DNA from: Chloroflexia bacterium
Lineage (GTDB): Bacteria; Chloroflexota; Chloroflexia; DTKN01
NCBI GenBank assembly: GCA_034433695.1
Contig: DAOUAK010000007.1
Span: 498 to 64,497 of the forward strand
Direction: 5' to 3'
Length of the DNA: 64,000 nt
This document shows positions 2,949 through 48,032 of this stretch, piece by piece. The notes under the pieces are model-generated. The model had not been told where the DNA came from and did no database searches. It saw nothing but the letters and a program-made list of their open reading frames with translations. Made by a program: the position numbers and the translations under genes. Position 1 is the stretch's first letter; every line of letters begins with the position of its first letter.

Positions 2949-3839
2949 TTGGCCGAAAGTCGTGTCGCCACGCCGGAGGTGAGCGTCGTCCTTCCGGCCC
3001 ATAACGAGGCCGGCCGGGTGGGCGCCGTGGTGAAGGCCATCCGCCGGAACTATCCGGAGGCGGAGATTCTGGTGGTGGATGACGCCTCCACCGACGCCAC
3101 CGCCGACGAAGCCCGGTCCGCCGGGGCCATCGTCCTCCGCCACCCCTATAACAAGGGCAATGGCGCCGCCGTCAAGACGGGCCTGCGCCAGGCCCGCGGC
3201 CGCCTGATCGTGCTGATGGACGCCGATGGCCAGCACGATCCGGACGACATTCCCCGCCTCCTGGAGCCGCTGGCGGAGTACGATCTGGTCGTCGGGGCCC
3301 GCCACCCGGCTTCCCAGTCCTCCTTTCTGCGTCGCCTGGGCAACGGCTTCTTCAACGCCCTGGCCACGTACCTCACCGGCCGGCCCATCCCCGACCTGAC
3401 CAGCGGCTTCCGCGCCGCCCGCCGGGAAGCGCTTTTAGAGTTCCTCCACCTCCTGCCCAACGGCTACTCTTACCCCACGACGACCACGCTGGCCTTTCTC
3501 AAGGCCGGCTACAGCGTGGCCTTTGTCCCGATCCGCTCGGCCCGGCGCGAGGGGGGAAAGAGCGGCATCCGCCTCCTCCGCGACGGCATCCGCTTCATCC
3601 TCATTATCCTGCGCATCGCCACCCTCTTTTCGCCGCTCAGGGTCTTTCTGCCGGTCAGCGCCGGCCTCTTTGTCCTGAGTTGCCTTTCGGCCGGCTACAC
3701 CATCTTGACCGAGGCCCGGCTCCATATTCCCAACTCGGCCGTCCTCCTCTTCACGATGAGCGTCATCGTCTTCCTGATCGGGCTGGTCTCGGAACAGATC
3801 GCCCTGCTACGCTTCGAGCGGCGGGAGCATCGGCCGTAG
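2949..3839 (+). CDS. GT2 polyprenyl-phosphate glycosyltransferase (ArnC/GtrB/DPM1-like) with C-terminal TM helices
   Basis: Motifs VVLPAHNEAGR, VVDDASTD, DADGQHDP; C-terminal hydrophobic segments. The long 2763 ORF overlaps uvrA. In-frame TTG at 2949 is 6 nt after AAGGAG, so it is the likely start. Confidence 0.8.
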   Translation: MAESRVATPEVSVVLPAHNEAGRVGAVVKAIRRNYPEAEILVVDDASTDATADEARSAGAIVLRHPYNKGNGAAVKTGLRQARGRLIVLMDADGQHDPDDIPRLLEPLAEYDLVVGARHPASQSSFLRRLGNGFFNALATYLTGRPIPDLTSGFRAARREALLEFLHLLPNGYSYPTTTTLAFLKAGYSVAFVPIRSARREGGKSGIRLLRDGIRFILIILRIATLFSPLRVFLPVSAGLFVLSCLSAGYTILTEARLHIPNSAVLLFTMSVIVFLIGLVSEQIALLRFERREHRP

Positions 3840-3855
3840 CGACGAGGGAGGTAAC

Positions 3856-4872
3856 TTGGGCAAACGGTGGCAGCGGTGGGGTGGTCTCGCACTGCGCTGG
3901 GCCCTCCGGCTTCTCGGACCGGCCCTCCTGGTCTATATCCTCTGGAGCAACCGCGACGAACTGACCCTGGCCGGGGAAACGCTGCGTCGGGTGCAGTGGT
4001 TCCCCTTGGTGCTGGCCTTTGTGCTGGTCTTTCCCTTTGTCCTGCTCAAGGGCTGGCGCTGGCAGGTCATCCTGAAGGACCTGGGGCAGGACGTCCCCTG
4101 GAAGCGGCTTACCTTCTACTATGCCCTGGGCATCTTCCTGGGCGCCGCCGTGCCGGGGCAGGCCGGCGATTTCCTGAAAGCCTGGTACCTCAAGGAGGAC
4201 GGCTATGACCTGGGGGCCGCCTTCCTGAGCACGGTGGTGGACCGGCTGTTCGATATGCTCATGATGGGCCTCCTGGCCCTGAGCGGGCTATACATCCTCC
4301 TGCGCCTGGCCTCGGCCCCGACGCTCCTCCTCGTCCTGGGCCTCATGCTGGCCGGCATCGTCCTCTTCCTGAGCCTCCTCCTGGACCGGCGCTGGCGCAA
4401 CTGGTTGATCGAACGGGTGCTGCGTTATATCATCCCGGCGGCGGTGCGGCGCGTCCTGCGCGAATACAACGTCCGGGCCTACCTGGATCACTTTTTCCTG
4501 AGTTGGCGGAACGTAGCCCTGGGGACGGCCATCTCCCTCCTCTCTTTCTCTACTACTTTTTTCCGCCTGTGGCTGCTCATCCCGGCGCTGGGGAAGACGC
4601 TACCGGTCGAAACCTTTGTCCCCACGATGGCCCTGATGGGGCTGGCCAGCCTCCTTTCGGTGGCCGGCCTGGGGACGCGGGAAAGCGTCCTCCTGGCCAT
4701 CCTGGGGATACCGGCCCTGACCTACCCGGCCGTCTGGTCGCGGGGGGAAATCCTCAGCCTCTCCGCCCTGATCCTCTGCCTGGGTCTGGAAAACCTGGTG
4801 CTCGGCCTGCCGCTCTACCTCCTGCGTCCGCTGGGGAATCGGGGCGAAACCTACAGAGGGGGGACGTTCTAA
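3856..4872 (+). CDS. flippase-like / lysylphosphatidylglycerol-synthase-TM-like polytopic membrane protein (UPF0104-like)
   Basis: 338 aa with about 8 hydrophobic helices. Contains a PGQAGDFLKAWYL-type motif typical of flippase-like domain proteins that pair with DPM1-like GT2 genes. Starts 17 nt after the GT2 stop. Confidence 0.65.
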   Translation: MGKRWQRWGGLALRWALRLLGPALLVYILWSNRDELTLAGETLRRVQWFPLVLAFVLVFPFVLLKGWRWQVILKDLGQDVPWKRLTFYYALGIFLGAAVPGQAGDFLKAWYLKEDGYDLGAAFLSTVVDRLFDMLMMGLLALSGLYILLRLASAPTLLLVLGLMLAGIVLFLSLLLDRRWRNWLIERVLRYIIPAAVRRVLREYNVRAYLDHFFLSWRNVALGTAISLLSFSTTFFRLWLLIPALGKTLPVETFVPTMALMGLASLLSVAGLGTRESVLLAILGIPALTYPAVWSRGEILSLSALILCLGLENLVLGLPLYLLRPLGNRGETYRGGTF

Positions 4873-5891
4873 CGTTCAACGACGGTCAGGGAATCCCCTG
4901 CCCGTCGGGCAATCTCCCGGCGCAGGCGTAGCGTGCTCCAGGGGGAAAGGGGCGGGGAGAGGAGGCGGGTCAGTTCCCGGAGCGACACCTGACGCAGGCG
5001 CTGGACGGCCCGGCGCTCCGGTCGGAGCGAGGGCAGCATCCGGAATGCGGCCAGCCGGCCACGCCAGATTTCATGCTTCCCACTCACGACTCCGTAGGCA
5101 CATGCGGCCAGGTCATAGGCCAGAATCAGGGGAGCGTAGCGCAGCCACAGGCCGGCCGGCAGGTTCAGGTACAGCACCAGCCAGCGGTTGCGGGCCAGGT
5201 AAAAGGCCTTGAAGGGAGAATCCTCCCCGCCGGTAGCCGAGTAGATGTGGCGGACGATGGCTCCAGGGGAGAGGAGGCACCTCCACCCGGCCAGCCGGGC
5301 CCGCCAGGCCAGGTCCACATCCTCCAGGTAGGCGAAGAATTCGGGACGGAAAAGCCCCACCTGCTCCAGCATGGCCCGACGCAGAAGGGCCGCCCCACCG
5401 CTGGGGCCGAAGATTTCCTGCGGTCTATCCGGCAGTTCCTCCCGCCGCCGGCCGAGCCAGAGGTCCAGCGCCACTCCATCCCACTGCATCCGGATGCCGG
5501 CCGAGGCCACAAACTCCGGCCAGCGGGCGAAGACGAGCACCCCCCCCACCATGCCCACGCGCTCGTCCTGCCCGGCCGTTTCCACGAGCGCCTCCAGAAA
5601 ACGGGGTTCGGCCTGGGTATCGTTGTTCAGGAGGACGAGGAGATCTCCCCGGGCCGCCGCGATTCCGGAATTTACGCCCTCGGCAAAGCCCAGGTTGCGC
5701 GAATGGACGAGCAGGCGCACTTTGGGAAAATGCTCGGCCACCCATTGGGGCGAGCCGTCGGTGGAGGCGTTGTCCACCAGGATGGTCTCAAAGGCGGGGA
5801 AAGTCTGCCGGGAGAGTGCTTCCAGGCAGGGGCCAAGGAAAGGCCGGCCGTTCCAGTTGACGATGATGACCGAGCAGCAGGGGGAACTCAC
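4869..5891 (-). CDS. GT2 family glycosyltransferase
   Basis: Sits in the C-terminal part of the 700-aa ORF. Motifs SVIIVNWNG, VDNASTDGS, LNNDT, YLEDVDLAWR. GTG start at 5891 overlaps the M20 stop (GTGA). The region upstream of that in the same frame is a GC-rich spurious extension. Confidence 0.8.
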   Translation of the reverse strand: MSSPCCSVIIVNWNGRPFLGPCLEALSRQTFPAFETILVDNASTDGSPQWVAEHFPKVRLLVHSRNLGFAEGVNSGIAAARGDLLVLLNNDTQAEPRFLEALVETAGQDERVGMVGGVLVFARWPEFVASAGIRMQWDGVALDLWLGRRREELPDRPQEIFGPSGGAALLRRAMLEQVGLFRPEFFAYLEDVDLAWRARLAGWRCLLSPGAIVRHIYSATGGEDSPFKAFYLARNRWLVLYLNLPAGLWLRYAPLILAYDLAACAYGVVSGKHEIWRGRLAAFRMLPSLRPERRAVQRLRQVSLRELTRLLSPPLSPWSTLRLRREIARRAGDSLTVVER

Positions 5892-7246
5892 TCCGGCAGG
5901 CCCTCCGCCAGGTGGCCCAGCAAGACGGCGACGTGGACGATGCCCCGCTCCAGGTCGCCCAGGCGCACGTTCTCGTTCGCCCCGTGAACCTGGGAACCGG
6001 GATGGCCGATGCCCAGCCCGACCACCGGCATTCCCAATCCCTGCCCAAAGAAAAAGATCGGCCCGGAGCCGCCGGCGATGGGGAAAACGGCCGGGTTTTT
6101 CCCAAAGGCCCGTCGGGTGGCCTCCACCACGGCGCGGACGAAGGGGGCTTCGGGGGGCGTGCGGAAGGGCTGGAGCGGGGAACCCAGCACCCGAATCTGG
6201 ATGTCCCCAAAACCCTCTCGGTCCAGGTAGCAGCGTAGTTGCTCCAGCACTTCCTCCGGACGCTGCCGGGGCACCAGCCGAAAGTCCAGCCGGGCCCGGG
6301 CCGTTGCCGGTATGATGGTCCGTTCGCCCTCCCCCGTGTGTCCGCCGGCCAGGCCCGAGATGTTGCAGGTGGGGGAGTAGAACTGGCAGAGGAGAAGGGT
6401 ACTCCCGGACATCCCCTGCAGGAAAGACGGCACCTTCCAGGACTCCAGGTAATCCTTCTCCGGGAAAGGAAGCCGACGGGACTTGCGGATCTCCTCGTGG
6501 CCGGGGCCCTCCACCGCGTCGTAGAAGCCGTCTATGAGGATCTCCTCGTCCGGGCTTTTCAACCGGGAGAGGGCCCAGACCAACCGCCAGGCCGGGTTGG
6601 GGGCGATGGTGGCCCAGCCGGAGTGTAGTTCGGTGGTGGCGCCCCGCACCTCCAGTTCCACGCTGAGGAGTCCCTTCATCCCCAGGTAGAGGTGGGGCCG
6701 GCCGTCGCTGCTTACGCTCCCGCTTTCCCAGATGCAACCATCGGCCCGCAGGCGTTCGGCGTGGCCCAGGACGAACTCGGCCAGATGGGGGCTGCCCACT
6801 TCCTCCTCCCCTTCCACCAGGAAGCGCACCCCCACCGGGAGGCCGCCCTCCAGTTCCTGCCAGGCACGCAGGGCCCACAGGCGGGCCAGAAGCGTCCCCT
6901 TGTTGTCCACCGCCCCCCGGGCGTAGAGGCGGCGGCGGTACAGGCACGGCGCAAAGGGGGGAAAGCGCCACTCGCGCTCGTCGCCGGCCGGCTGCACATC
7001 ATAGTGGTCGTAGAAGAGGACGGTCGGCCGGCCCGGAAGTAGCCGCTCGGCCACGACCACCGGCGGTCCGCCGGCAGAGAGGAGTTGCACCTCCAGTCCG
7101 CAATCCTCCAGCGCACGGGCTACCCAGTCGGCGGCCGCCTTCAGATCTTCCGGCCGGCCGGCCATGCCGGGGATGGCACAGAGGCATCGCAGGTCTTCCA
7201 CCACCTCGGGCAGGTGTTTTCGGGCAAAATCTCGAAAGCGTTGCAT
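5888..7246 (-). CDS. M20 family metallopeptidase (ArgE/DapE/dipeptidase-like)
   Basis: Motifs YDHYDVQPA, GAVDNKG, EGEEEVGS, GIGHPGSQVHGANE. Likely ATG at 7246 is 7 nt after AAAGGAG; the ORF extends in frame to GTG at 7273. Confidence 0.8.
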   Translation of the reverse strand: MQRFRDFARKHLPEVVEDLRCLCAIPGMAGRPEDLKAAADWVARALEDCGLEVQLLSAGGPPVVVAERLLPGRPTVLFYDHYDVQPAGDEREWRFPPFAPCLYRRRLYARGAVDNKGTLLARLWALRAWQELEGGLPVGVRFLVEGEEEVGSPHLAEFVLGHAERLRADGCIWESGSVSSDGRPHLYLGMKGLLSVELEVRGATTELHSGWATIAPNPAWRLVWALSRLKSPDEEILIDGFYDAVEGPGHEEIRKSRRLPFPEKDYLESWKVPSFLQGMSGSTLLLCQFYSPTCNISGLAGGHTGEGERTIIPATARARLDFRLVPRQRPEEVLEQLRCYLDREGFGDIQIRVLGSPLQPFRTPPEAPFVRAVVEATRRAFGKNPAVFPIAGGSGPIFFFGQGLGMPVVGLGIGHPGSQVHGANENVRLGDLERGIVHVAVLLGHLAEGLPE

Positions 7247-7273: not shown

Positions 7274-7759
7274 CTAGCGGGCGGCCGGAGGGATGTCCGG
7301 CCCCTCCCTCTGACGTTCGCGCAGGCTGCGTAAAAGCTGCGTCCGGATGATCTCACGCTCACGACGGGCCCGCCGCTCCTCCGGGGTGCGATCGAGGACC
7401 ATCTGCACCGTCTTCACCAGGGCTATCGGGCTGAACGGCTTGGTGATATACTCGTCGGCTCCCAGTTGCCATCCCTGGATGATGTCGGAATCCTGCACCA
7501 GGGCCGTGAGCACAACCACCGGGATATCCTGAAAAGCCTTGTTCTGGCGCAGACGACGCAAAACCTCCCAGCCGTCCAGCCCCGGGCCCAACATAATGTC
7601 CAGAATGACGAGGTCCGGCTGTTCCTCGGCCACCCGCTCAAGGGCTTCCTGGCCGCTGGTGGCGGTGATCACTTCGTGGTTTTCCAGCCGCAGGTTGACC
7701 TCGATCAACTTGAGGATGGGGTGTTCGTCTTCAACGACCAGAATTCGGCTCATGTCCAT
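7274..7759 (-). CDS. single-domain response regulator (REC)
   Basis: ILVVEDE, DLVILDIML, DGWEVL and TKPF motifs in 161 aa. Its stop abuts the start of the M20 gene. Confidence 0.85.
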   Translation of the reverse strand: MDMSRILVVEDEHPILKLIEVNLRLENHEVITATSGQEALERVAEEQPDLVILDIMLGPGLDGWEVLRRLRQNKAFQDIPVVVLTALVQDSDIIQGWQLGADEYITKPFSPIALVKTVQMVLDRTPEERRARREREIIRTQLLRSLRERQREGPDIPPAAR

Positions 7760-9134
7760 CTCCTGTCGCGGATGGGGAGGGTGGGCAACGGGCGATCAGG
7801 TCCTCTACGCAGGCAGAAAACTGCTTCAGGGAGAACGGCTTCAGGAGAAAGGCATCAATATGTAGCCGGAAGGCGCGTTCCTCATCTTCGGCATCGGTGG
7901 AGAGAAGAAGGATGGGCTGGTGCCGGAGTTCCGGGATGGCCCGCAACTGTCGGCAGAGGTCCCAGGCGGAGCCGTCTTCCTGCCAGGCATCCAGGATAAT
8001 GAGCGAGGGGACAGAGGAGCGGACGGAAGACAGCAGTTCGCCCCCGGTGAAATAGAGGTGCACCCGCCGGCCGGCCCGCTCCAGATGCATCCGCAGGAGT
8101 TGCAGGAGGTCTCGCTCGGCCCCGGCAATGACCACCTCGCAGGGCCATGGGCGCCCCCGTCGTTCCATCTCCGGGGACAGGGGGCGAGCGGGAGGAACGC
8201 GCCGGTCCACGACATAGGTGCTCCCCGGCATCCGCTTGGCCAGGTGTTTCATCTCCGCCGCCAGTCGGCCCATCTCGTCCAGGCTGGAAAAAGCACGGCG
8301 GACGTTGGTCACCACGCCGATGGAGATGGTCATCAGAGGAAAGCGATGGGGCACCCCATGCCGGTCATAGCCCCGCAGATAACCCTGTTCCAGGTCGGAC
8401 GGGTCGTAGAGGGCGGGGATGGCGGCATCGAAACGTTCGGTCAGGGTTTTGCAGATCGCTTCCACCTGTTCCGGCCGGGCGATAATGGCGAAATCGTCCC
8501 CACCGATATGGCCGATGAAATCGTCCGGCGTGCCTTTCTCGGCCACCGCCTCCTGGATCAGGCGGGCCAGCAGGCGGATGGCCTCATCGCCGCGTACAAA
8601 GCCGTAGGCGTCGTTGAAAGCCTTGAAGTTGTCCATATCCACGTAAAGCAAGGCCAGAGGTGCCCCGCTCTGAAGGCGGTAACGCAACTCTTCTTCCAAC
8701 AGGCGGTTGCCCGGAAGTCCGGTCAGCGGGCTGCGCACCGGAATCTCCCTGGCCCGCCGCAGGAGGGCACGGATGCGGGCCAGGAGTTCGTCCAGGTCGA
8801 AAGGTTTGGTCACATAGTCGTCGGCCCCGCTTTCAAATCCGGAGAGTTTGTCCCCCAGCGCCGAACGGGAAGTCAGCATAAGGATGGGTACGTGGCCGAT
8901 GCGGGTATCGTTGCGCAGTTGCCGACAGACCTCGAAGCCGTCCATCTGCGGCATCATCACGTCTACCAGAATGACGTCCGGCACGCTCTCCTGGGCCATC
9001 GAGATGGCTTCGGCCCCGTTCCCGGCCAGGGCTACGCGGTATCCGGCCTTCTCCAGGAAGAGGCGCAAAAGTTCCCGAACTTTCGGATCGTCGTCGGCAA
9101 CGAGGATGGTGGCCTTTTCGGTTTCCATCTTCAA
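7731..9134 (-). CDS. response regulator with REC, GGDEF-like domain (degenerate GGDDF) and a C-terminal receiver-like domain
   Basis: N-terminal REC (VADDD, ILVDVMMP, DGFE, TKPF). GGDEF fold region (LTGLPGNR, LLYVDMDNFKAFND, RGDEAI, GGDDF). C-terminal REC-like segment with ILDAW but a weak acidic pocket. Start overlaps the PfkB stop (TTGA). Confidence 0.8.
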   Translation of the reverse strand: MKMETEKATILVADDDPKVRELLRLFLEKAGYRVALAGNGAEAISMAQESVPDVILVDVMMPQMDGFEVCRQLRNDTRIGHVPILMLTSRSALGDKLSGFESGADDYVTKPFDLDELLARIRALLRRAREIPVRSPLTGLPGNRLLEEELRYRLQSGAPLALLYVDMDNFKAFNDAYGFVRGDEAIRLLARLIQEAVAEKGTPDDFIGHIGGDDFAIIARPEQVEAICKTLTERFDAAIPALYDPSDLEQGYLRGYDRHGVPHRFPLMTISIGVVTNVRRAFSSLDEMGRLAAEMKHLAKRMPGSTYVVDRRVPPARPLSPEMERRGRPWPCEVVIAGAERDLLQLLRMHLERAGRRVHLYFTGGELLSSVRSSVPSLIILDAWQEDGSAWDLCRQLRAIPELRHQPILLLSTDAEDEERAFRLHIDAFLLKPFSLKQFSACVEDLIARCPPSPSATGDGHEPNSGR

Positions 9135-10072
9135 CTCACCAACCGCTGGTAGAGCAGTTCCAGGCAGAGGTCGCTGCGCACCGTCTCCAGCGATTGGGCG
9201 GTCAACGCGGCGGCCGAGACGCCCAACCAGACCGCCTCGTCCAGGGGGAAATGGTTGACCAGGCCGTAGATGATGGCCGCGGTCTGGGCATCGGCCGCTC
9301 CGGTCGGGTCCACGACATCGGCGCGCACGGTCGGGATGTAGCCGTTTTGTTCCCGGCTGGCATAGGCCACCCCCTGCTGCCCCAGGGAGATGACCACCAC
9401 CTTCACGCCGGCGGAAACGAGTTGTCGGGCAGCATCGGCCGCTTCCCGGGAGGAGGAGATGGTCAGTCCGGTCAGTGCCTCGGCCTCCACCGCTCCGGCC
9501 GTCAGGAGGTCAATATGCTCCAGATGGTCCCGGTAACGGCGGGCCAGTTCAAAGGAGACCGGATCCAGGCAAAAGGGCACTCCGTACTTCTGGGCCAGGC
9601 GCATGGCCGTCTCGACGGCCGGCCTGGGGGTATTGGCGTCCACCACCACCATACGGGCCTGGCGGAAAAGCCGCCGGCGGTCGTAGATGTAGCGCGGAGT
9701 CAGTTCGGACAGGATGGCCGTATCGTCCACGGCAGCGGAGAGGTTTCCTTCGCCGTCGACCAGGGCCACATAGGAGGCCGTGCGTCCGTCGCGCAGGAAA
9801 AGCACCTGGCTCACATCCACCCCGGTGCGGCCGGTATGTTTGACGACCTGATGGCCGAAGGGGTCGCGGGCCACCACCGTCAGGAGGGCGGTGCGCAATC
9901 CCAGGCGGGCCAGGTTCTCGGCGATATTGCGGGCTACCCCTCCCACGGTGATACGTACCCGGCCCGGATTGGAGGTGGACGGGTGAATCCGGCCGGCCAC
10001 ATGCCCCTTGATGTCCAGGCAGGCCGCCCCGATGACCACGATTTCGGGATTCCATGGGTCCATCGCCGCCAT
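9131..10072 (-). CDS. PfkB family carbohydrate/nucleoside kinase (ribokinase-like)
   Basis: 313 aa. Motifs VVIGAACLDIKG, GGVARNIAENLARLG, DPTGAADAQ, and a GAGD-type anion hole at the C-terminus. Confidence 0.85.
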   Translation of the reverse strand: MAAMDPWNPEIVVIGAACLDIKGHVAGRIHPSTSNPGRVRITVGGVARNIAENLARLGLRTALLTVVARDPFGHQVVKHTGRTGVDVSQVLFLRDGRTASYVALVDGEGNLSAAVDDTAILSELTPRYIYDRRRLFRQARMVVVDANTPRPAVETAMRLAQKYGVPFCLDPVSFELARRYRDHLEHIDLLTAGAVEAEALTGLTISSSREAADAARQLVSAGVKVVVISLGQQGVAYASREQNGYIPTVRADVVDPTGAADAQTAAIIYGLVNHFPLDEAVWLGVSAAALTAQSLETVRSDLCLELLYQRLVS

Positions 10073-10083
10073 CCTCCTCCTGC

Positions 10084-10111
10084 ATTATACCACAGGAAGC
10101 GCCAGACGCAA
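10084..10111 (-). promoter_or_regulatory. promoter TTGCGT-16-TATAAT (minus strand) for the PfkB/REC/M20/GT2 operon
   Basis: Minus-strand read is TTGCGTCTGGCGCTTCCTGTGGTATAAT followed by GCAGGAGGAGG and ATGGCGGCGATGG, the PfkB kinase start. Extended -10 is TGgTATAAT. Confidence 0.55.
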
Positions 10112-10143
10112 CGGCGAACGAACCCGGCATCCCCTAGCGAGGT

Positions 10144-10172
10144 TTGCGCAAGGTCCGGTGATGGTGTACAAT
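10144..10172 (+). promoter_or_regulatory. promoter TTGCGC-17-TACAAT for the NTPase-kinase cassette
   Basis: TTGCGC at 10144-10149 and TACAAT at 10167-10172. It shares the 19-mer CCGGTG(R)TGGTGTACAATG with the promoter at 2885-2908. The implied transcription start of about 10180 favours TTG 10212 as the translation start. Confidence 0.5.
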
Positions 10173-10211
10173 GAATTTATCTATAGCCGTGGTTGGTGGA
10201 GGCCGGAAGCG

Positions 10212-12131
10212 TTGGCTTTCGTTCGTAATCCGTTCTTCCATCGGCATCGCATCACCGATCTGGCCTACTTTTACGGCCGGCAGCGGGAACTGGAGCACCT
10301 CTGTGGGGCCCTCCTCACCGGCCAGTGCCGGGCCATCGTCGGCGAACGCAAGATAGGCAAAAGTTCGCTTCTGACCTCCCTGACCACTCCTTCCATCCGG
10401 CGGCGTTTTGGATTGGAAGCCGAACGTTACCTGTTCGCCTACCTCGACCTGGAGGGGATGGTCTCGGCCAGCCGCAGCGAATTCTGGCAGGAGGTGCTGG
10501 AGCAGTATTCCTCCGGCCTGCGGGAAGAGGACCTGCGTCTCCTTTTCCACAGCACGGCCCGGGAAACCGAAGTCCGCTTCATGCGGATTCGTCGCCTCCT
10601 TCGCCAGGCCGGCGATGCCGGTTACCGCCCCGTCCTCATCCTGGACGAATTCGAGGCCCTGGCCCAGAACCCCGACTTTGGCCCCGACTTTTACGGCGAA
10701 CTGCGCAGCCTGGCCGGTGAGGTCGGCGTGGTCTATATCACCGCCTCCCGACGTAGCCTCTACGAACTCACCTACCGGCACTCCGGCACCCTTTCCTCCC
10801 CTTTCTTCAACATCTTCACCGAACTCCCGTTGGGGCTGATGACCGAGGAGGAGGTCCAGGCGCTCCTGGAGGGGATTTCCCGTCTGGGCGGCAGCCCGGG
10901 CCTGGGTTCGGAGGAAGTCCGGCTGGCCCTGGAGTGGGCCGGCCCGCACCCCTTCTTTGCCCAGGTGGCCGGCTATCACCTCTGGGAACTGGGGGCCGGA
11001 AAGCGCACCCTCCTTCCCGCCGAACGCGAACAGGCCTGGCGTCGCTTCCTGGCCGAGGCCGAGGACCACTACCGCTACTCCTGGGCGCAACTGGACGAGA
11101 CCGAACGTGTGGGCGTCCTTCACCCCGAACGGGTGCCCGAGGAGGTACAGCGGCGGCTATTGCGCCGGGGCGTGTTGCGGGTGGTGGAGGGCGAGTTGCG
11201 ACCCTTCTCCCGGCCCTTTGCAGAATTTGCCCGTCGCCAGGAGCAGGCGACCCCCTCGACCCCATCGTTGACCACCACCCTCGGCGAGGACCTGACCGGC
11301 CGGAGCATCGGCCCCTATCGCATCCTGGAACGCTGTGGGCAAGGGGGCATGGCCGAGGTCTACAAGGGCTACCACCCGCTCATTGACCGTTACGTGGCCG
11401 TCAAAGTGCTTCGGCCGGCCCTGGCTTCCGATGAAGAGTTCCGTCGCCGTTTCCAGCGCGAAGCCACCGCCGTCGCCGCCATGCGCCATCCCAACATCGT
11501 CCAGTTGTACGACTTTGGCCAGATCGGGGAGCGTTTCTATATGGTCATGGAATACATCGAAGGCGGCACCTTACGAGACCGCCTTCGGGCCCTCCCCGAA
11601 GGAAACCGGCGACTTCCCCCGGCCGAGGTGGTGGCCATCGTTCGAGGCATCGCCGCCGCTCTCGATTACGCCCACCAGCGGGGCATCGTCCACCGCGACG
11701 TCAAACCGGCCAACGTGATGTTCACCCGCGACGGCGACCCTGTGCTGACCGACTTTGGCATCGCCCGGATGCTGGGGGAAGGCTCCGTGACGATGGCCGG
11801 CGTGAGCATCGGCACTCCGGACTATATGTCCCCCGAACAGGCCCGGGGAGAACCGGCCACTCCGGTCTCCGACATCTATTCCCTGGGCGTGATGGTCTAT
11901 GAGATGCTCACCGGACGGCGTCCCTTCAGCGCCGAAACGCCCCTGGGGGTTATCGCGCAGCACCTCCAGGGGGACTTTCCTTCCCCTCGCAATGTGGACC
12001 CGTCTTTTCCCGAGGCCCTGGAAGGCGTCCTGCGCCGGGCTCTGGCCAAGGAACCTGCCGCTCGCTACTCCACGGCCGGAGAATTGGCCCGTGAATTGCA
12101 GGCGGCGGTGGAACAGGATATTTCCCATTGA
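10212..12131 (+). CDS. P-loop NTPase (STAND/AAA_16-like) fused to C-terminal Hanks-type Ser/Thr protein kinase
   Basis: N-terminal part: FYGRQRELEHL, Walker A GERKIGKSSL, Walker B VLILDEFE, helical lid and winged helix. C-terminal part: GQGGMAEVYKG, AVKVL, HRDVKPANV, DFG, TPDYMSPE. Likely start is TTG 10212 after GGTGGAGG; alternative in-frame ATG at 10161. The 10008 ORF start is an antisense-overlap artefact. Confidence 0.8.
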   Translation: MAFVRNPFFHRHRITDLAYFYGRQRELEHLCGALLTGQCRAIVGERKIGKSSLLTSLTTPSIRRRFGLEAERYLFAYLDLEGMVSASRSEFWQEVLEQYSSGLREEDLRLLFHSTARETEVRFMRIRRLLRQAGDAGYRPVLILDEFEALAQNPDFGPDFYGELRSLAGEVGVVYITASRRSLYELTYRHSGTLSSPFFNIFTELPLGLMTEEEVQALLEGISRLGGSPGLGSEEVRLALEWAGPHPFFAQVAGYHLWELGAGKRTLLPAEREQAWRRFLAEAEDHYRYSWAQLDETERVGVLHPERVPEEVQRRLLRRGVLRVVEGELRPFSRPFAEFARRQEQATPSTPSLTTTLGEDLTGRSIGPYRILERCGQGGMAEVYKGYHPLIDRYVAVKVLRPALASDEEFRRRFQREATAVAAMRHPNIVQLYDFGQIGERFYMVMEYIEGGTLRDRLRALPEGNRRLPPAEVVAIVRGIAAALDYAHQRGIVHRDVKPANVMFTRDGDPVLTDFGIARMLGEGSVTMAGVSIGTPDYMSPEQARGEPATPVSDIYSLGVMVYEMLTGRRPFSAETPLGVIAQHLQGDFPSPRNVDPSFPEALEGVLRRALAKEPAARYSTAGELARELQAAVEQDISH

Positions 12132-15100
12132 GCGTTCCCGGAGCCGTTCCGAAAATGTATCGTAAGAGTATCCAATCCGGCCTCCTCGAAGGTATCCTTC
12201 TGGCCCTGACCCTGGGCCTGGTCATCGTCGAGGATGAGGTCGTCCGCCTCCTGCCAGGGGAAAGGGCGACTCCGCTCCTGCCTCGCGACCTGGTACGCAC
12301 CTTTGCCCTAATTCTGGCGGCTATCTTGCTCCTCTTCCTGGGCATTCTGGCGGCGATGCGGGTGCGGCCGGCCCGACCCAGAGAAGGGTTTCTGGCCGGT
12401 GCTACAAGCGGTTGGGTGGCCGGATGGGTGGTGACCACCTTTCTCTTCTTCCCCCTGGTCGTCCTGCGTGAGGGGTTGCCTCCCTATCAGCAGGTCCTCC
12501 TTCGGCCCGAGATCGTCGCGGATGAGGCCCGGCTGGCTCAGGTGGCCTGGTCCGCCTGGCAACTCTCCGTCGGTGTGGCCTTCCTTGTTCCCCTTGCAGG
12601 CCTTGGTTTGGGCGGTATCGAGGGCCTGGCCTACGCCTGGTTGCGGCGTAACGTCGCATCCTTCCAGGAAGGACCCGCGCTTCCGCTTCTTTTGAGGGAA
12701 ATCCGAGGTGGCTGGACCCTCCCGGTCGAACGCGACGAGCACATCCTGCGGGCCGGCCTGTGGGGTGGGACGATGGTGGGCACTTTCCTGGCCCTGGAAG
12801 TGCTCCTTTTGACCTTGCAGGCCCTATCCGCCGTTCCCTTGCCGGCCAACCGGAGCGCCCTCCTGGAGCAGGGCCGACTTCTGGCGCTGGCTGGTCCGCT
12901 GGCCGTCCTGGTGCCCCCGGCCTTTCTCCTGTGGGGCGGCAGCGGCATCCTGCTTCTCAAGGACCCGCCGACCCGTTTCCGTTCCCGTCTGGCAGCCGGC
13001 ACCCTTTCCGGTGCCGTGGCCGGGACCTTCCTTTCCACCCTGGCCCTCCTTCCGGCCCTGAACGCCGGTCTGGCCCTCCTGCCACTTTGGCTCCGGTCCG
13101 GTGGAGAGCGTCCGCCCTTCCTTCCCGAGCAATTGGCCCTCCTGGCCCGCAACTTTTTCTTCCTCTACCTCCCGATTCCCCTGGCCTTACTTTTCCTCTC
13201 CGCCCTGGCCGGCTTTCTCCTGGGCCTGCCCTTTGCCCTGCTCAGCGCCTACCTCTGGCCGCGCCGGCCGGTGGATCGGGCCATCCGGCTGGTCGGACGG
13301 TTGCGCCAGCAGCCGGAGACTCTTCTGCCGGAACTGTACGCCCTTTTCCAGCACGACCGTCAGGCCGGCCCGGTGCTTCGCCATCTGGCCTACCTTTTCC
13401 AGAAGGAGAAAGACCCCGGCCTGGCTACCCTGGCCGCCGCCTATCAGGCCCTCTATGAGCCTTTCACCTATCCCGCCGAGTCCCTGGAGGAGATTCTCGA
13501 GACCAGCGCCACCGTCCTGGCCGCCACCCCCGAACGGCGCTGGAGCCGCGAGATCGGGGAACTGCACCGTTTCCTCGATGAGGGGTTGCAGGCCCGCAAC
13601 CTCCTGCACCTGGCAGCCATCCGTCCCCTTCCGGAAGAGCACACTTCCTCCCTGCCACCTCCTCTGATCCGGGTTTGGGAACGCCTTTCTGCGGTCGTCC
13701 ATGAGGTGAAAAAGGCCCAGCGGGTGGACGACCCCAACGGGCGGGCCATCTACCTGAACCGTGCCCTGGAGGAGGTGGCGGCGGCCCGGCGGCTCTCCGA
13801 GGAAGATATGGCCTTTCCTCACGGCCGCCGGCCGGCTACCTTTTACCCGGAACAACGAGTCCTGGCCGTCCTCCTTCCCCACTGGCAGGCCATCCTCCAC
13901 GAAGCCCTCCGCGACCTGCGCGGACGGGCTCTCCTGCGGGCCGAACTGGTCACCCGCCGGATGTCCTGCCAGCCCCGCCTGAAGTTGCACCTGCGTCTGA
14001 CCAACGCGGGGCTGAATGTGGCCGAGCGGGTGCGTCTCTACCTTCTCCCCGGGCCGGACTACCAGTTGACGGAGGAAAGCGAGGCCCGCCTGGAGGTGCT
14101 TCTGCCCGGCGAGGAACGGACGGTGGAACTGGCGCTGGAGCCGCGGAATTCCCAGCGGATGCGCGTGGTGGTCCAGATCCTCTACGACGACGCCGTGGAC
14201 GAAAACCGGGAGATGGTCCTGGCCGATGAGGTGGTCTTCCTGGCCGAGGAGCGTCCCTTCCAGCGGATTTTCCCCATTCCCTACGTGACCGGCACCCCGC
14301 TGAAGACGAAGGAGATGTTCTTCGGTCGGCAGGACGTTTTCACCTACGTCCGCGAACACCTCCTGGGAGCCTACCAGAACAACATCATCGTCCTCCACGG
14401 CCAGCGGCGCACCGGCAAGACCTCGGTGCTCTACCGCCTGTCCGAGGTCCTCCAGGATACCCATTACTGCGTCTTGCTCGACATGCAGGGTATGGCCGTC
14501 CGCAACGAGGCCGAACTTTTTTACACCTTCAGCGACGAGATCGCGTATGCTCTCGGGCGGGAGGGAATTCCGGTACAACTGCCCCCACGCCAGGAGTACG
14601 AGGCCCAACCGGAGTTCACCTTCCGTTCCCGCTTCCTTCGCAACCTCTATCCGGCCCTGGGGGAAAAACGCCTCCTGCTCATGTTCGACGAGTTCGAGGA
14701 ACTTCAGGGGCTGGTGGAGGCCGTCCATCTGAGGGCCGACATTTTCCCCTTCTTGCGCAACCTGATGCAACATGAGGAAAAGGTGGATTTCCTCTTCTCC
14801 GGGACCCACAAACTGGAGGAACTGGCGGCCGAGTACTGGTCGATTCTCTTCAATATTGCCACCTATAAAAAGATTTCTTTCCTTGAACCGGACGAGGCCC
14901 GCCGCCTCATCACCGAGCCGGTAGCACCCTATGGGATGGAATACGACTCGCTGGCGGTGGAACAAATCCTCCGCGTTACGGCCGGCCATCCCTTCCTGAC
15001 CCAACTCGTGTGCCATGAAATGGTGGCCTACCATAACGAGGTGGAGCGCAGTTACCTCACCGTGGCCGACGTGGATGCGGTGCTGGAGCGCATCGCCGAG

Positions 15101-15412
15101 CGGGGCGAGGCCCACTTCAAATACATCTGGTCGGAAGCCGATCCCCAGGAACGGGCAGCGATGCTGGCCCTGGCCGAACTGCTGGCCTATAGCGAAGGAG
15201 CCTCGGCCGAGGAAATTTCCGCCCTCTCCGCCCGGCGTGGCCGGCCGCTGGAGGGCGAAGCCGCCCTTTCCGCCCTCCTCCGTCTGGAATCCCGCGACAT
15301 TGTGGTCCGCCTGTCCCCGGGCTCCGAGCGTTTCCGTTTCTATATAGACCTGGTCCGCCGCTGGATCGCCGTGAACCCGCAACTGGCCGATCAGGTGTCC
15401 ACCCGCCCATAA
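12128..15412 (+). CDS. polytopic membrane protein (about 10 TM) with C-terminal paralogous P-loop NTPase (STAND/AAA_16-like) and winged helix
   Basis: N-terminal ~380 aa with about 10 hydrophobic helices. Then a cytoplasmic helical region and a beta-rich segment (RLEVLLPGEERTVELALEPRN). Then FFGRQDVF, Walker A GQRRTGKTSV, Walker B LLLMFDEFEE. Start is TTG 12128 (TTGA overlap with the upstream stop) or ATG 12155. Confidence 0.75.
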   Translation: MSVPGAVPKMYRKSIQSGLLEGILLALTLGLVIVEDEVVRLLPGERATPLLPRDLVRTFALILAAILLLFLGILAAMRVRPARPREGFLAGATSGWVAGWVVTTFLFFPLVVLREGLPPYQQVLLRPEIVADEARLAQVAWSAWQLSVGVAFLVPLAGLGLGGIEGLAYAWLRRNVASFQEGPALPLLLREIRGGWTLPVERDEHILRAGLWGGTMVGTFLALEVLLLTLQALSAVPLPANRSALLEQGRLLALAGPLAVLVPPAFLLWGGSGILLLKDPPTRFRSRLAAGTLSGAVAGTFLSTLALLPALNAGLALLPLWLRSGGERPPFLPEQLALLARNFFFLYLPIPLALLFLSALAGFLLGLPFALLSAYLWPRRPVDRAIRLVGRLRQQPETLLPELYALFQHDRQAGPVLRHLAYLFQKEKDPGLATLAAAYQALYEPFTYPAESLEEILETSATVLAATPERRWSREIGELHRFLDEGLQARNLLHLAAIRPLPEEHTSSLPPPLIRVWERLSAVVHEVKKAQRVDDPNGRAIYLNRALEEVAAARRLSEEDMAFPHGRRPATFYPEQRVLAVLLPHWQAILHEALRDLRGRALLRAELVTRRMSCQPRLKLHLRLTNAGLNVAERVRLYLLPGPDYQLTEESEARLEVLLPGEERTVELALEPRNSQRMRVVVQILYDDAVDENREMVLADEVVFLAEERPFQRIFPIPYVTGTPLKTKEMFFGRQDVFTYVREHLLGAYQNNIIVLHGQRRTGKTSVLYRLSEVLQDTHYCVLLDMQGMAVRNEAELFYTFSDEIAYALGREGIPVQLPPRQEYEAQPEFTFRSRFLRNLYPALGEKRLLLMFDEFEELQGLVEAVHLRADIFPFLRNLMQHEEKVDFLFSGTHKLEELAAEYWSILFNIATYKKISFLEPDEARRLITEPVAPYGMEYDSLAVEQILRVTAGHPFLTQLVCHEMVAYHNEVERSYLTVADVDAVLERIAERGEAHFKYIWSEADPQERAAMLALAELLAYSEGASAEEISALSARRGRPLEGEAALSALLRLESRDIVVRLSPGSERFRFYIDLVRRWIAVNPQLADQVSTRP

Positions 15413-15564
15413 GAGAGGGTAACCGCGGTGCGCAACTCCAGGCGGGTCGCTTTCCCGGCGATGTTCCTCCTACGGTGATACACACCCGGCCAGGATTGGA
15501 CGGGTGAGACAACCCCCGGGTTGCCCAGCGCGGATACCCCGGTAGCGGTCTTGGGACGGGCCGG

Positions 15565-15780
15565 CTATTCGGGGCTTTCGTACTTGAAGGAAAGTTTGAT
15601 CTTGGCCCGGTAGGCGCGCACCTTGCCGTCTTCGATCTGCATGTCCAGTTCAGCGACTTCGGCGATGCGCAGATCGCGCAGCGTCTTGGCGGCCGTCTCC
15701 ACCGCGTTGGCGGCGGCGCGTTCCCACGACTCGGTGCTGGTGCCGATGATCTCGATAACTTTGTAGACAGTGTCGGCCAT
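15565..15780 (-). CDS. dodecin family flavin-binding protein
   Basis: MADTVYKVIEIIGTSTESWERAA...KIKLSFKYE, about 71 aa, matches the dodecin fold signature. Start taken at the second Met. Confidence 0.75.
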   Translation of the reverse strand: MADTVYKVIEIIGTSTESWERAAANAVETAAKTLRDLRIAEVAELDMQIEDGKVRAYRAKIKLSFKYESPE

Positions 15781-15850
15781 GGTCTCCTCCTTGCCGCTGT
15801 CCGGCAACCTCACCCGGCCCTGAAAACGGGTATACCTGATCCAGGCGATT

Positions 15851-16108
15851 CTATTCGCCGGAGGTACAGCCGACGACGATCGTGCCTCGGCCGACGTGGG
15901 CCTCCAGCAAGCCCTCGGCGACGAGTTCGCTGTAGGCGTTCAGCACCGGAGTCCGGGATAGCCCCAGACGGCGGGCCAGCCGGCGTTCCGAAGGCAGACG
16001 TGTCCCCGGAGGCAGTTCGCCGCGCAGAATCTTTTCCCGAATCTGGTCGCGAATTTGTAGATAAAGAGGGATATGGCTCTCCAGATTCAAATTCAGATGG
16101 ATGTCCAT
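15851..16108 (-). CDS. GntR-type winged-helix HTH-only transcriptional regulator (85 aa)
   Basis: LYLQIRDQIREKILRGELPPGTRLPSERRLARRLGLSRTPVLNAYSELVAEGLL is a GntR N-terminal HTH. No effector domain is present. Confidence 0.7.
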   Translation of the reverse strand: MDIHLNLNLESHIPLYLQIRDQIREKILRGELPPGTRLPSERRLARRLGLSRTPVLNAYSELVAEGLLEAHVGRGTIVVGCTSGE

Positions 16109-24034: not shown

Positions 24035-24066
24035 CCCCCTTTATGCCGGACCCGGGGAATCAAAAG

Positions 24067-24139
24067 CGCGGCTGGGGCGACTCGAACGCCCGACCACCTA
24101 CTCCGGAGGCAGGTGCTCTATCCACTGAGCTACAGCCGC
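24067..24139 (-). tRNA. tRNA-Arg (anticodon CCG)
   Basis: Minus strand reads GCGGCTG TA GCTC AGTGGATA GAGC A CCTGC CTCCGGA GTAGG TGGTC GGGCG TTCGAGT CGCCC CAGCCGC G. Cloverleaf with 7-bp acceptor stem, U33 and anticodon CCG. CCA is not encoded. Confidence 0.85.
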
Positions 24140-30670: not shown

Positions 30671-30674
30671 TCCG

Positions 30675-47871: not shown

Positions 47872-47879
47872 AAAAATGT

Positions 47880-47952
47880 GGGCCGCTAGCTCAACTGGTA
47901 GAGCAGTTGACTCTTAATCAACGGGTTCGAGGTTCGAGTCCTCGGCGGCTCA
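47880..47952 (+). tRNA. tRNA-Lys (anticodon CTT)
   Basis: GGGCCGC TA GCTC AACTGGTA GAGC A GTTGA CTCTTAA TCAAC GGGTT CGAGG TTCGAGT CCTCG GCGGCTC A. Good cloverleaf; CCA is not encoded. Confidence 0.85.
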
Positions 47953-48032
47953 TGGGTTTTCTGGATGTTCCGTTGTCGAACGGTCAGTCGTTATCCGTCC
48001 ACCTTCTTCGGTATCGAGTGGGGAGGTATCCT

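Follow-up and report, generated by a model that had tools for sequence, protein, structure and literature searches.

Two neighbouring genes of a Chloroflexia bacterium, gene A and gene B, each encode a STAND-like P-loop NTPase, in one case fused to a Ser/Thr kinase and in the other to a membrane domain. The locus raises the question of whether the two products work together and, if so, whether such a pair has been described before. The window (the whole stretch of 64,000 nucleotides that was analysed) had been examined earlier from its letters alone, and the original prediction was of a two-gene cassette in which a membrane-sensed signal is relayed to the kinase. The reading favoured here, on balance, is that the two genes make up a self-contained signalling module, translated together, in which two NTPases relay a signal across the membrane to a kinase output.

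Gene arrangement

ORF analysis of the window confirmed both genes as real and on the + strand. They are bracketed, as described earlier, by opposite-strand genes for a PfkB kinase (9131–10072) and a dodecin (15565–15813), and they are divergent from a string encoding PfkB, an RR-GGDEF-RR protein, an RR and an M20 peptidase, the second-messenger and response-regulator operon already noticed. The start of gene A, formerly placed at 10212, is replaced by the ATG at 10161, as the identical public protein (P0017) is annotated with 656 aa; the gene thus spans 10161–12131. The 88 bp between it and the pfkB-like gene on the − strand (10073–10160) are the presumed promoter region, a location that we infer from the gene arrangement. 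The pair had been credited with its own promoter, a claim that found no backing: no sigma-70-like or consensus promoter site was found in 9900–15900, nor was a terminator downstream of gene B.

Gene B (12155–15412, + strand) most likely begins at the ATG at 12155, judging from the family N-terminus, M-[YI]-[RK]-K-S, and from the 1085-aa public annotation of an identical protein (P0001). The two genes are then separated by 23 nt (12132–12154) containing GGAG. The TTGA overlap proposed earlier therefore does not apply here, although in relatives a 4-nt overlap is the commonest junction (31 of 52). An alternative start at TTG 12128 would restore a 4-nt overlap with gene A.

A soluble NTPase–kinase

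The product of gene A is a soluble protein with no hydrophobic segment in its hydropathy profile, and consists of an nSTAND2 NTPase, a lid and winged-helix part, a linker and a Hanks-type kinase. Pfam supports the predicted combination of an NTPase with a complete kinase: nSTAND2 matches aa 63–316 at 47.7 bits (cutoff 24), along with nSTAND1 and AAA_22, followed by Pkinase at 183 bits (8.7e-54). The NTPase module (10227–11225, + strand; aa 23–355), delimited from Pfam and motif conservation, runs from an NPFF motif, of which N23 and P24 are invariant across 44 A-like proteins, through a C-terminal helical, predicted winged-helix part. Across 50 orthologs, the Walker A motif GERKIGKSS (10341–10367) has G, E, R, K, G, K, S and S each 100% conserved, as are the D, E and E of Walker B, VLILDEFE (10632–10655). 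A conserved arginine (R182, in FYGELRSLAGE) follows Walker B, and the module also carries a GxP lid motif (AGPHPFF). The linker to the kinase (11226–11312) is rich in S, T and P; in the family, measured over window residues ~351–385, it is 33–51 aa long with 29% S/T/P.

The kinase domain (11313–12119, + strand) carries the G-loop, the VAVK lysine, the alphaC glutamate, HRDVKPAN, DFG and SPE motifs, with catalytic residues 100% conserved in orthologs and conserved threonines in the activation loop. It scores 356 bits over the catalytic domain against NCBIfam PknB_PASTA_kin, below the equivalog cutoff of 450, and is predicted from its intact catalytic motifs to be an active, PknB-like kinase. 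The motifs quoted for gene A in the original prediction were thus all present and 98–100% conserved.

A membrane-embedded paralogous NTPase

Gene B encodes a polytopic membrane protein of receptor type. Its membrane domain (12155–13252, + strand; aa 1–366) has ~8 long TM helices with short loops, contains an internal tandem duplication, and evolves fastest of all parts of the protein. The earlier count of about ten TM helices is revised: the hydropathy profile has 8–10 peaks, and the AF2 model has ~8 long helices and additional short ones. A cytoplasmic linker region of ~340 aa follows, in which ~220 aa of helices precede a ~100-aa beta-sandwich, modelled confidently (pLDDT 86) and in agreement with the sandwich-like segment foreseen. 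Its helical juxtamembrane domain (13253–13921; ~223 aa) begins at an invariant RPVD and has a conserved KKxxRVDD, and the CARDB-like or Ig-like sandwich (13934–14239) carries an N-x-G-L-N-V-A motif.

Pfam matches are confined to the C-terminal third (nSTAND1 at 34.8 bits and nSTAND2 at 31.4 bits, together at aa 727–1022; AAA_22), and bear out the predicted NTPase module, which extends from PIPYVTGTP to GEAHFKYIW (14273–15184). In Walker A, GQRRTGKTS (14399–14425), conservation reaches 100% at G, Q, R, R, G, K and the last S, and 98% and 90% at the two T positions; in Walker B, LLLMFDEFEE (14672–14701), all 51 orthologs share DEFEE, which is followed by a conserved arginine (R868, in FPFLRNLMQHE). 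The last ~75 aa (15185–15409), with the conserved pattern RDI..R....S..Y.F..DL.RRW in the alignment, are presumed to form a winged helix, and a relative, P0186, has an HTH_12 winged-helix match at the equivalent position. Nothing else in the two proteins is as conserved as this NTPase module, which has a mean pairwise identity of 70% across the phylum and retains 67–72% identity where the TM domain falls to 24–29%. No solved structure related to it by sequence was found. The NTPases of A and B share 25% identity over 297 aa (E = 1e-11), in keeping with the paralogy proposed for them.

Linkage of the two genes across Chloroflexota

It could be argued that A and B are two independent STAND-like proteins that merely lie side by side, as the 23-nt gap and lack of overlap in the window might suggest. 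The pair was kept in all eight independent contexts examined first, and in the full set gene A lies upstream of gene B on the same strand in 53/53 informative Chloroflexota genome loci, directly so in 52, despite wholly different flanks. Pairwise distances for the domains of A track those for the domains of B closely (r = 0.85–0.91), pointing to correlated evolutionary rates, and the frequent 4-nt overlaps noted above, together with a pairing that persists in the wider family when input domains, output domains or gene order change (see below), also speak against chance adjacency. These linkage statistics effectively refute the idea, which we regard as very improbable, and the comparative data argue for the functionally coupled cassette of the original prediction, whose expected conservation as neighbours across Chloroflexota was observed.

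All genomes carrying the pair are MAGs, with ~1 A–B locus per genome. Identity follows taxonomy, at 56–86% for Chloroflexia-labelled MAGs and 36–48% for those of Anaerolineae type. Walker A and B of both NTPases and the kinase catalytic residues are 98–100% conserved (~50 orthologs each), so that the motifs are not degenerate, and neither ORF falls into a well-characterised family. No third gene is conserved beside the pair in the flanks of the Chloroflexota loci, the best candidate occurring in five. Nor does a substrate of the kinase, an FHA protein or a PP2C phosphatase recur nearby, a point that counts against the relay. The flanking genes differ in every lineage, which is compatible with genome rearrangement or mobility. 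In one genome, an R–M-like cassette is inserted between A and B.

A wider modular family

The helical, sandwich and NTPase unit of gene B is also found in other proteins, always starting directly after a TM helix, and is preceded either by a multi-TM domain or, in longer proteins, by a beta-propeller ectodomain in a TM1–propeller–TM2 layout (Reg_prop, WD40 or FG-GAP propellers). Among the 29 informative metagenome loci, defined as those with both flanks available, an A-like NTPase gene adjoins the receptor in 27. The 43 partners and gene A of the window make up a set of 44 A-like proteins, all with Pfam nSTAND2 above threshold, whose outputs include the OmpR-type DNA-binding domain Trans_reg_C (22), Pkinase (14), CHAT (3) and cyclase (2); some relatives of gene A carry CHAT, EAD7 or HD-CE domains. 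Receptors beside the other kinase-type partners are mostly multi-TM. The NTPase cores are therefore constant while inputs and outputs interchange, which is the pattern expected from a receptor/output relay and supports, at the level of comparative genomics, the proposed transfer of a membrane signal to the kinase. The window pair is the member with multi-TM input and kinase output of a far larger modular family, one that is essentially unstudied.

Proposed mechanism

In the proposed relay, gene B would be the receptor, integral to the membrane, with the juxtamembrane helices and the CARDB-like sandwich joining the cytoplasmic NTPase to a polytopic, internally duplicated TM domain that has almost no extramembrane loops; gene A would be the soluble output protein, with a flexible S/T/P-rich linker between its paralogous NTPase and the PknB-like kinase. 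A stimulus in or at the membrane would alter the gene B NTPase in its bound nucleotide or its oligomerisation, and this NTPase would then recruit or co-assemble with that of gene A into a hetero-oligomer. Kinase domains clustered in this way could trans-autophosphorylate on the conserved activation-loop threonines, and the activated kinase would phosphorylate cytoplasmic targets. The direction of signal flow, the nucleotide dependence, the physical A–B interaction and kinase activation by clustering are steps that we infer.

The flow could instead run from the inside out, with gene B as a mechanotransmitter of the FtsX/MacB kind that uses its own NTPase to power conformational work in the membrane or envelope, its TM domain being output rather than input and the kinase of gene A sensing or regulating the process. 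FtsX and MacB (type VII ABC systems) have a dimeric 4-TM arrangement, which the duplicated TM domain resembles; both NTPases appear catalytically competent from their motifs, and some flanking genes are envelope-related, with YkuD L,D-transpeptidases in four loci. Set against this, the Foldseek comparison was not significant (best E = 0.23, TM-score ≤0.23), gene B has no Pfam FtsX match, no ABC ATPase partner and no large periplasmic domain, and the likeness in fold is a lead only. STAND-type NTPases work as switches, not motors, and the occurrence of the cytoplasmic module behind sensor-type Reg_prop ectodomains, beside partners whose outputs are DNA-binding, cyclase or kinase domains, is far easier to reconcile with signalling from the outside in. 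Inside-out flow is accordingly considered improbable.

Defence and mobility context

A different role for the same architecture would be that of an anti-phage or conflict system of the abortive-infection type, in which gene B senses invasion at the membrane, through phage injection or membrane damage for instance, and the NTPase complex switches on the kinase, which would serve as an effector that is toxic or raises an alarm, comparable to STAND/Avs-type and kinase-based systems. Both NTPases belong to nSTAND1/nSTAND2, whose definition as families goes back to predicted counter-invader systems, and relatives of gene A bear domains typical of conflict systems (CHAT protease, EAD7, HD-CE), so part of the family, or even the A–B pair, may serve in defence. 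The unconserved flanks and the R–M-like insertion could be read in the same way, as could the strong PADLOC matches of the gene A kinase domain (PD-T4-6 and mad6), but these are limited to the generic Hanks kinase domain, and gene B matches no PADLOC model. The genomic surroundings, which the earlier reading had proposed to check for defence islands, gave no defence link: of the 121 nearest flanking genes, which are of housekeeping type, only ~4 match a PADLOC model. No relatives were present in 2.9 million viral contigs searched, and none that are close were found on plasmids, where only remote NTPase matches occurred. The copy number of about one per genome, the identity pattern that follows taxonomy, and the use of OmpR-type DNA-binding domains as half of the family outputs also count against defence, and a gene B NTPase ~70% identical across the phylum is unlike fast-diversifying immune sensors. 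A defence function is judged unlikely, though it deserves to be kept in mind.

Relation to described systems

The closest earlier description of the pair is a two-gene nSTAND2 operon reported by Kaur, Iyer, Burroughs and Aravind (Kaur et al. 2021, eLife; PMC8195603, Fig. 6C) as a computational prediction only. There too, the products of two neighbouring genes are paralogous STAND-like NTPases that include a winged helix (presumed in A–B), one protein being '??+STAND+wHTH', with an uncharacterised N-terminal region, and the other nSTAND2 with a C-terminal output; the NTPases were predicted to form a toroidal hetero-multimer, so the hetero-oligomer idea has precedent. That operon is proteobacterial and described as mobile, and the NTP-binding motifs are eroded in the NTPase that bears the effector, which is HEPN (with TPRs) or GT4. 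In A and B, by contrast, the Walker motifs of both NTPases are fully conserved, the output is a kinase (or a DNA-binding domain, cyclase or CHAT in relatives), the partner is integral to the membrane and has the helical and CARDB-like module, the order in Chloroflexota is A then B, and defence or mobile context is absent. The original statement that the pairing is not a described system thus stands for the membrane-receptor/kinase version, of which no description was found in the searchable literature, but not for paired nSTAND2 NTPases as such.

In classical STAND regulators (PknK, AfsR/SARP, MalT, GutR), nucleotide-dependent oligomerisation activates the output. Like gene A, they fuse a P-loop NTPase switch to a Ser/Thr kinase or DNA-binding output, but they are single soluble polypeptides with an N-terminal output, the NTPase and C-terminal TPR or other repeat sensors. 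As predicted and borne out by Pfam, the kinase of gene A is C-terminal to the NTPase and the pair has no TPR or WD repeats; the sensing role falls to a separate protein, the paralogous NTPase embedded in the membrane.

Two-component systems likewise have side-by-side genes for a membrane receptor and a cytoplasmic output protein, and swappable inputs and outputs around a constant transmitter/receiver pair, making the wider family, in its logic, a two-NTPase analogue of them. A and B differ in having no HisKA/HATPase_c or receiver domains; their cores are two paralogous P-loop NTPases, and nucleotide-dependent co-assembly would take the place of phosphotransfer. With receptor-type Hanks kinases (PknB-like), gene A shares the catalytic domain and the activation-loop threonines, and it is probably activated, as they are, by induced proximity. 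It differs from them in its sub-cutoff equivalog score and in having no TM helix, PASTA or other sensor domain, and its coupling to the membrane would be indirect, via gene B.

Genomic context and gene boundaries

Genes A and B lie head to tail on the forward strand and are bracketed by opposite-strand genes, a PfkB-family kinase (9131-10072, reverse strand) beside A and a dodecin (15565-15813, reverse strand) beside B. Their G+C content (64-66%) is the same as that of the surroundings. Gene A was assigned the ATG at 10161 (10161-12131, forward strand) because an identical public protein has 656 aa. For gene B (12155-15412, forward strand) the ATG at 12155 is the start, as indicated by the length of the deposited protein (1085 aa) and by the ortholog N-terminus, M-[YI]-[RK]-K-S. 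The original prediction had started B at the TTG at 12128, overlapping the stop of A (TTGA), and this had to be revised; an exact look-up of the TTG version matched nothing, and a gap of 23 nt, with GGAG within it, separates the TGA of A from the ATG of B. The idea of translational coupling nevertheless holds for the family, in which 31 of 52 ortholog A-B junctions are 4-nt overlaps. The pair was also thought to have its own promoter, for which a consensus scan gave no support, as it detected no sigma-70-type site; it also detected no terminator after B.

Domain architecture of A and B

The N-terminal part of A (aa 31-316) matches the Pfam families nSTAND2 (PF20702, 47.7 bits, cut-off 24), nSTAND1 (PF20703, 30.1 bits, cut-off 27.1) and AAA_22, and carries Walker A (GERKIGKSS) and Walker B (VLILDEFE) motifs and a GxP-type lid motif (AGPHPFF) that is conserved among orthologs. 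The C-terminal part (aa 386-638) is a protein kinase (Pkinase, 8.7e-54, model positions 1-254 of 263) with a complete core of G-loop, VAIK Lys, alphaC Glu, HRD..N, DFG and APE, conserved at 98-100%, so that the motifs are not degenerate. By these features it is a Hanks-type (eukaryotic-like) Ser/Thr kinase, and PknB-like threonines are kept in the activation loop of the orthologs. NCBIfam and PADLOC recognise A only through this generic kinase domain.

In B, the Pfam matches are confined to the C-terminal region, where aa 727-1022 correspond to nSTAND1 (34.8 bits), nSTAND2 (31.4 bits), both above the curated cut-offs, and AAA_22, with other NTPase families below cut-off; the first 720 residues have no Pfam match. 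The Walker A (GQRRTGKTS) and Walker B (LLLMFDEFEE) motifs are again accompanied by a conserved GxP-type lid motif (AGHPFLTQ), and the key Walker residues of both proteins are 100% kept in 50-51 orthologs. All the motifs first quoted for A and B are present, and the profile searches place both proteins above the nSTAND1 and nSTAND2 cut-offs. As both match the profiles and keep the Walker A (GxxxxGK[ST]) and Walker B (hhhhDE) consensus, they are predicted STAND-like P-loop NTPases. Each also has an arginine after Walker B (R182 in A, R868 in B) that is at least 95% conserved and is a candidate arginine finger. The approximately 75 residues that follow the NTPase module of B probably form a winged helix, and a Pfam match of this kind (HTH_12) was seen only in one relative, P0186.

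The remainder of B is a membrane domain followed by a middle region. In aa 1-375 the hydropathy profile has 8-10 TM peaks, and an AF2 model (pLDDT 80, pTM 0.81), computed from an alignment of 15 sequences, predicts about eight long helices joined by short loops. The two halves of this domain are homologous (27% identity over 172 aa, E=1e-6; hhalign 94%), and a Foldseek search of the model against the PDB gave nothing significant. Kinship with FtsX/MacB-type permeases, which would be marked by a Pfam FtsX match, a 4-TM bundle fold and an ABC ATPase partner, is at most a tentative lead, as Pfam shows no FtsX match in B. The middle region, 340 residues past the last TM helix, is predicted (pLDDT 86) to consist of a helical domain of about 220 aa and then a beta-sandwich of about 100 aa. 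Identity to distant orthologs rises along the protein, from 24-29% in the TM domain and 35-42% in the middle region to 67-72% in the NTPase. Sequence searches of the PDB found no relatives of the NTPase module of either protein.

Paralogy and conserved linkage

The NTPase modules of A and B share 25% identity over 297 aa (E=1e-11) and, judged from this alignment, are true paralogs, as had been proposed. The two genes also keep together. Eight independent contexts, reached from homologs of B (42-100% identity) and of A (about 50-54%), all have A directly ahead of a B about 1,100 aa long, between flanks that are wholly different each time. A scan of genomes (one per species) gave 59 loci, about one per genome, all in Chloroflexota MAGs of the Chloroflexia, Anaerolineae, Thermoflexales, Ardenticatenaceae, Caldilineaceae and Promineifilaceae. 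When HMMs built for A and B were run on these loci, a same-strand A, full-length or contig-truncated, was found immediately upstream of B in 52 of the 53 Chloroflexota loci with upstream sequence, which bears out the expected conservation as neighbours; no flanking gene family was conserved in more than five loci. The one exception (L049, Anaerolineae MAG PPR_0270) has A 2.5 kb upstream of B, parted from it by a 2.47-kb insertion (3530-6001) with an N6/N4 DNA methylase (3646-5049, forward strand) and an HNH endonuclease (5055-5678, reverse strand), an R-M-like cassette that has landed between the two genes of the operon. At another locus (L040:4084-6004) gene A is broken into two ORFs that overlap, reflecting a frameshift, a pseudogene or an assembly error.

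Pairwise identities of the A and B domains are tightly correlated (r=0.85-0.91), and the genes have therefore been co-inherited without swapping of partners. A search with full-length B yielded just 16 clusters, the low-complexity TM region having probably overwhelmed the word-based choice of candidates; searches with sub-regions and the genome scans show a much larger family.

A wider family with exchangeable inputs and outputs

An exhaustive phmmer search of 1.84 billion representatives with the middle region of B matched 216 proteins, among them about 18 orthologs of B. The remainder includes many proteins 1,250-2,700 aa long, with the whole middle region sited about 380 residues from the C-terminus and invariably beginning directly after a TM helix. 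At the N-terminus they have beta-propellers (Reg_prop, WD40 or FG-GAP/PQQ), numerous TM helices or both, and some have a TM1-ectodomain-TM2 receptor layout. Behind one such receptor gene (L070), with a 4-nt overlap, comes a gene for an nSTAND2 NTPase that carries a CHAT protease. That these long relatives are fusions of A and B is ruled out, their N-termini being TM domains and beta-propellers.

In metagenomes, at least 499 relatives were detected and 79 loci were fetched; among the 29 with both flanks available, the receptor adjoins one or more A-like NTPase genes in 27. When 44 A-like proteins (43 metagenome partners and A of the window) were surveyed with Pfam, every one had nSTAND2 above the gathering score, joined to varied outputs: an OmpR-type DNA-binding domain (Trans_reg_C) in 22, a protein kinase in 14, CHAT in three and a nucleotide cyclase in two, with Metallophos, HD-CE and EAD7 occurring once each. 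The remaining kinase-type partners pair mostly with multi-TM receptors, in reversed gene order. The two paralogous NTPase cores are thus constant while inputs and outputs are exchanged, and this is the signature of a receptor/output signalling pair.

At some loci two to four A-like genes with differing outputs stand in a row, which suggests that one receptor may feed several outputs. In five metagenome contigs (L138, L143, L144, L148 and L149) such a row of two to four A-like nSTAND2 genes comes after one receptor-type NTPase, the outputs including Trans_reg_C, nucleotide cyclase, CHAT, kinase with Metallophos, and HD-CE with EAD7 and kinase. At L134 (737-2033), two short A-like NTPase fragments upstream of the receptor may be a decayed partner. 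A third architecture of B-like NTPases (P0227, P0255, P0236 and P0248) has the NTPase at the N-terminus and, behind it, LysM, Big_5 or 3-keto-disaccharide-hydrolase-like domains, of kinds usually found outside the cytoplasm. Relatives of the B NTPase also include members from archaea of the Thermoplasmata (P0188 and P0191).

Signalling or defence

The nSTAND families were first defined in predicted conflict systems, and some relatives of the pair carry CHAT, EAD7 or HD-CE, so a role of A and B in conflict or defence deserves consideration, but it is unlikely given their surroundings. Only about four of the 121 nearest flanking genes match PADLOC models (a generic kinase, two mad3 and one CARF), and the flanks are of a housekeeping kind (flavoproteins, YchF, histidine kinases, YkuD and PurA); the window encodes UvrA, an MprF-like protein, an M20 peptidase, response regulators, ClpB, a P-type ATPase and an aaRS. 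Within PADLOC-DB v2, the kinase domain of A alone has matches (PD-T4-6 and mad6) and B has none below E=0.015; neither a full-length component match to a defence model nor a defence neighbourhood was found. A scan of viral contigs returned no relatives of the pair, tblastn against plasmids gave remote matches to the NTPase only, and the B NTPase is about 70% identical across the phylum. Since the flanks, the PADLOC counts, the viral and plasmid scans and the conservation of the B NTPase all tell against a conflict role, a physiological signalling role is favoured for the Chloroflexota pair. More widely, the two-NTPase core occurs both with signalling outputs (DNA-binding, kinase, cyclase) and with conflict-type outputs (CHAT, EAD7, HEPN, GT4), a point relevant to the relationship between STAND/NLR-type immune NTPases and housekeeping signalling.

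Comparison with known systems

The pair belongs to the paired nSTAND NTPase systems, or to STAND signalling more broadly. The closest description comes from Kaur et al. 2021 (PMC8195603, Fig. 6C), whose nSTAND2 two-gene operon has two paralogous STAND NTPases that are predicted to form a toroidal hetero-multimer, based on a conserved arginine finger in both proteins. As in that operon, A and B lie next to each other on one strand, have paralogous STAND NTPase cores and match nSTAND2. The operon as presented there has one NTPase with eroded motifs, which bears HEPN or GT4, whereas Walker A and B are 100% conserved in both A and B, and the effector in A is a kinase instead of HEPN with TPRs or GT4. 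The table of that paper lists Proteobacteria with HEPN or GT4, and the distribution described is sporadic and mobile; in contrast, all 59 genome loci of the present pair are from Chloroflexota, with no viral or close plasmid relatives. One remote plasmid relative (L150), a 667-aa 'AAA-like domain-containing protein' of conjugative IncF plasmids (Klebsiella pneumoniae pF13_1, NZ_CP026163.1: 46805-48808), scores about equally with the A-type and B-type NTPase profiles (42 vs 52 bits). It was considered as a published nSTAND2 partner and rejected, being a lone protein with no adjacent paralog seen.

Regulators of the PknK/AfsR/MalT type are single chains with the output N-terminal to the NTPase and a C-terminal sensor of TPR or other repeats. 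The present system differs in being split over two proteins, in the C-terminal position of the kinase in A, and in lacking repeats, Pfam finding no TPR or WD match in A or B, just as originally described. Two-component systems are similar in logic, yet A and B have no domain of any two-component family. A full-text search of open-access papers and preprints found no paper describing a membrane-receptor/kinase version, an absence that is not proof, and no experimental study of the family was found, nor any solved structure detectable by sequence. The gene pair is real and the interpretation first placed on it, a proposed membrane-linked relay to a kinase, holds up.

A proposed relay mechanism

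The analysis establishes the architecture, the intact active sites, the paralogy, the linkage and the modularity; we infer that A and B interact physically, that the signal flows from B to A and that nucleotide has a role. A stimulus intrinsic to the membrane would be sensed by the duplicated membrane domain of B and passed on by the helical and sandwich domains to its NTPase, which would co-assemble with the NTPase of A in a nucleotide-dependent manner. The kinase domains of A, clustered in this way, could then undergo trans-autophosphorylation, and the activated kinase would go on to phosphorylate substrates.

It is a fair possibility, put forward here tentatively, that the pair belongs to a class of prokaryotic systems for transmembrane signal transduction that is widespread but has gone unrecognised, a 'two-NTPase relay' parallel to two-component systems, in which a receptor NTPase acts through nucleotide-dependent hetero-oligomerisation on a paralogous nSTAND2 NTPase with a modular output. 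The receptor would combine a multi-TM or propeller-ectodomain input with helical, CARDB-like and NTPase domains, and the output could be a DNA-binding domain of the OmpR type, a Ser/Thr kinase, a CHAT protease or a nucleotide cyclase. If true, bacteria would have another general route for information across the membrane, in which paired P-loop NTPase switches stand in for His-Asp phosphotransfer and inputs and outputs are just as plug-and-play. More than 1,100 A-like protein clusters and at least 499 receptor-type loci in metagenomes show the family to be large. Chloroflexota are abundant in soils, sediments and wastewater and their physiology is poorly understood; the pair, strongly conserved among them, would link a membrane signal to Ser/Thr phosphorylation.

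Other features of the window

Divergent from the pair is a gene for a receiver-GGDEF-receiver protein (7731-9134, reverse strand) with GGDDF at aa 211 in place of the canonical GG[DE]EF, and the product may be a degenerate or atypical diguanylate cyclase. Rfam and tRNA scans found tRNA-Arg(CCG) (24066-24139, reverse strand) and tRNA-Lys(CTT) (47879-47953, forward strand), both far from the A-B locus, and no other Rfam families in the window. Three large membrane proteins are PMT_2-type (dolichyl-phosphate-mannose-like) glycosyltransferases (30462-33155, forward strand; 56652-60101 and 60111-63014, reverse strand), the second of which also carries LysM and NHL beta-propeller repeats.
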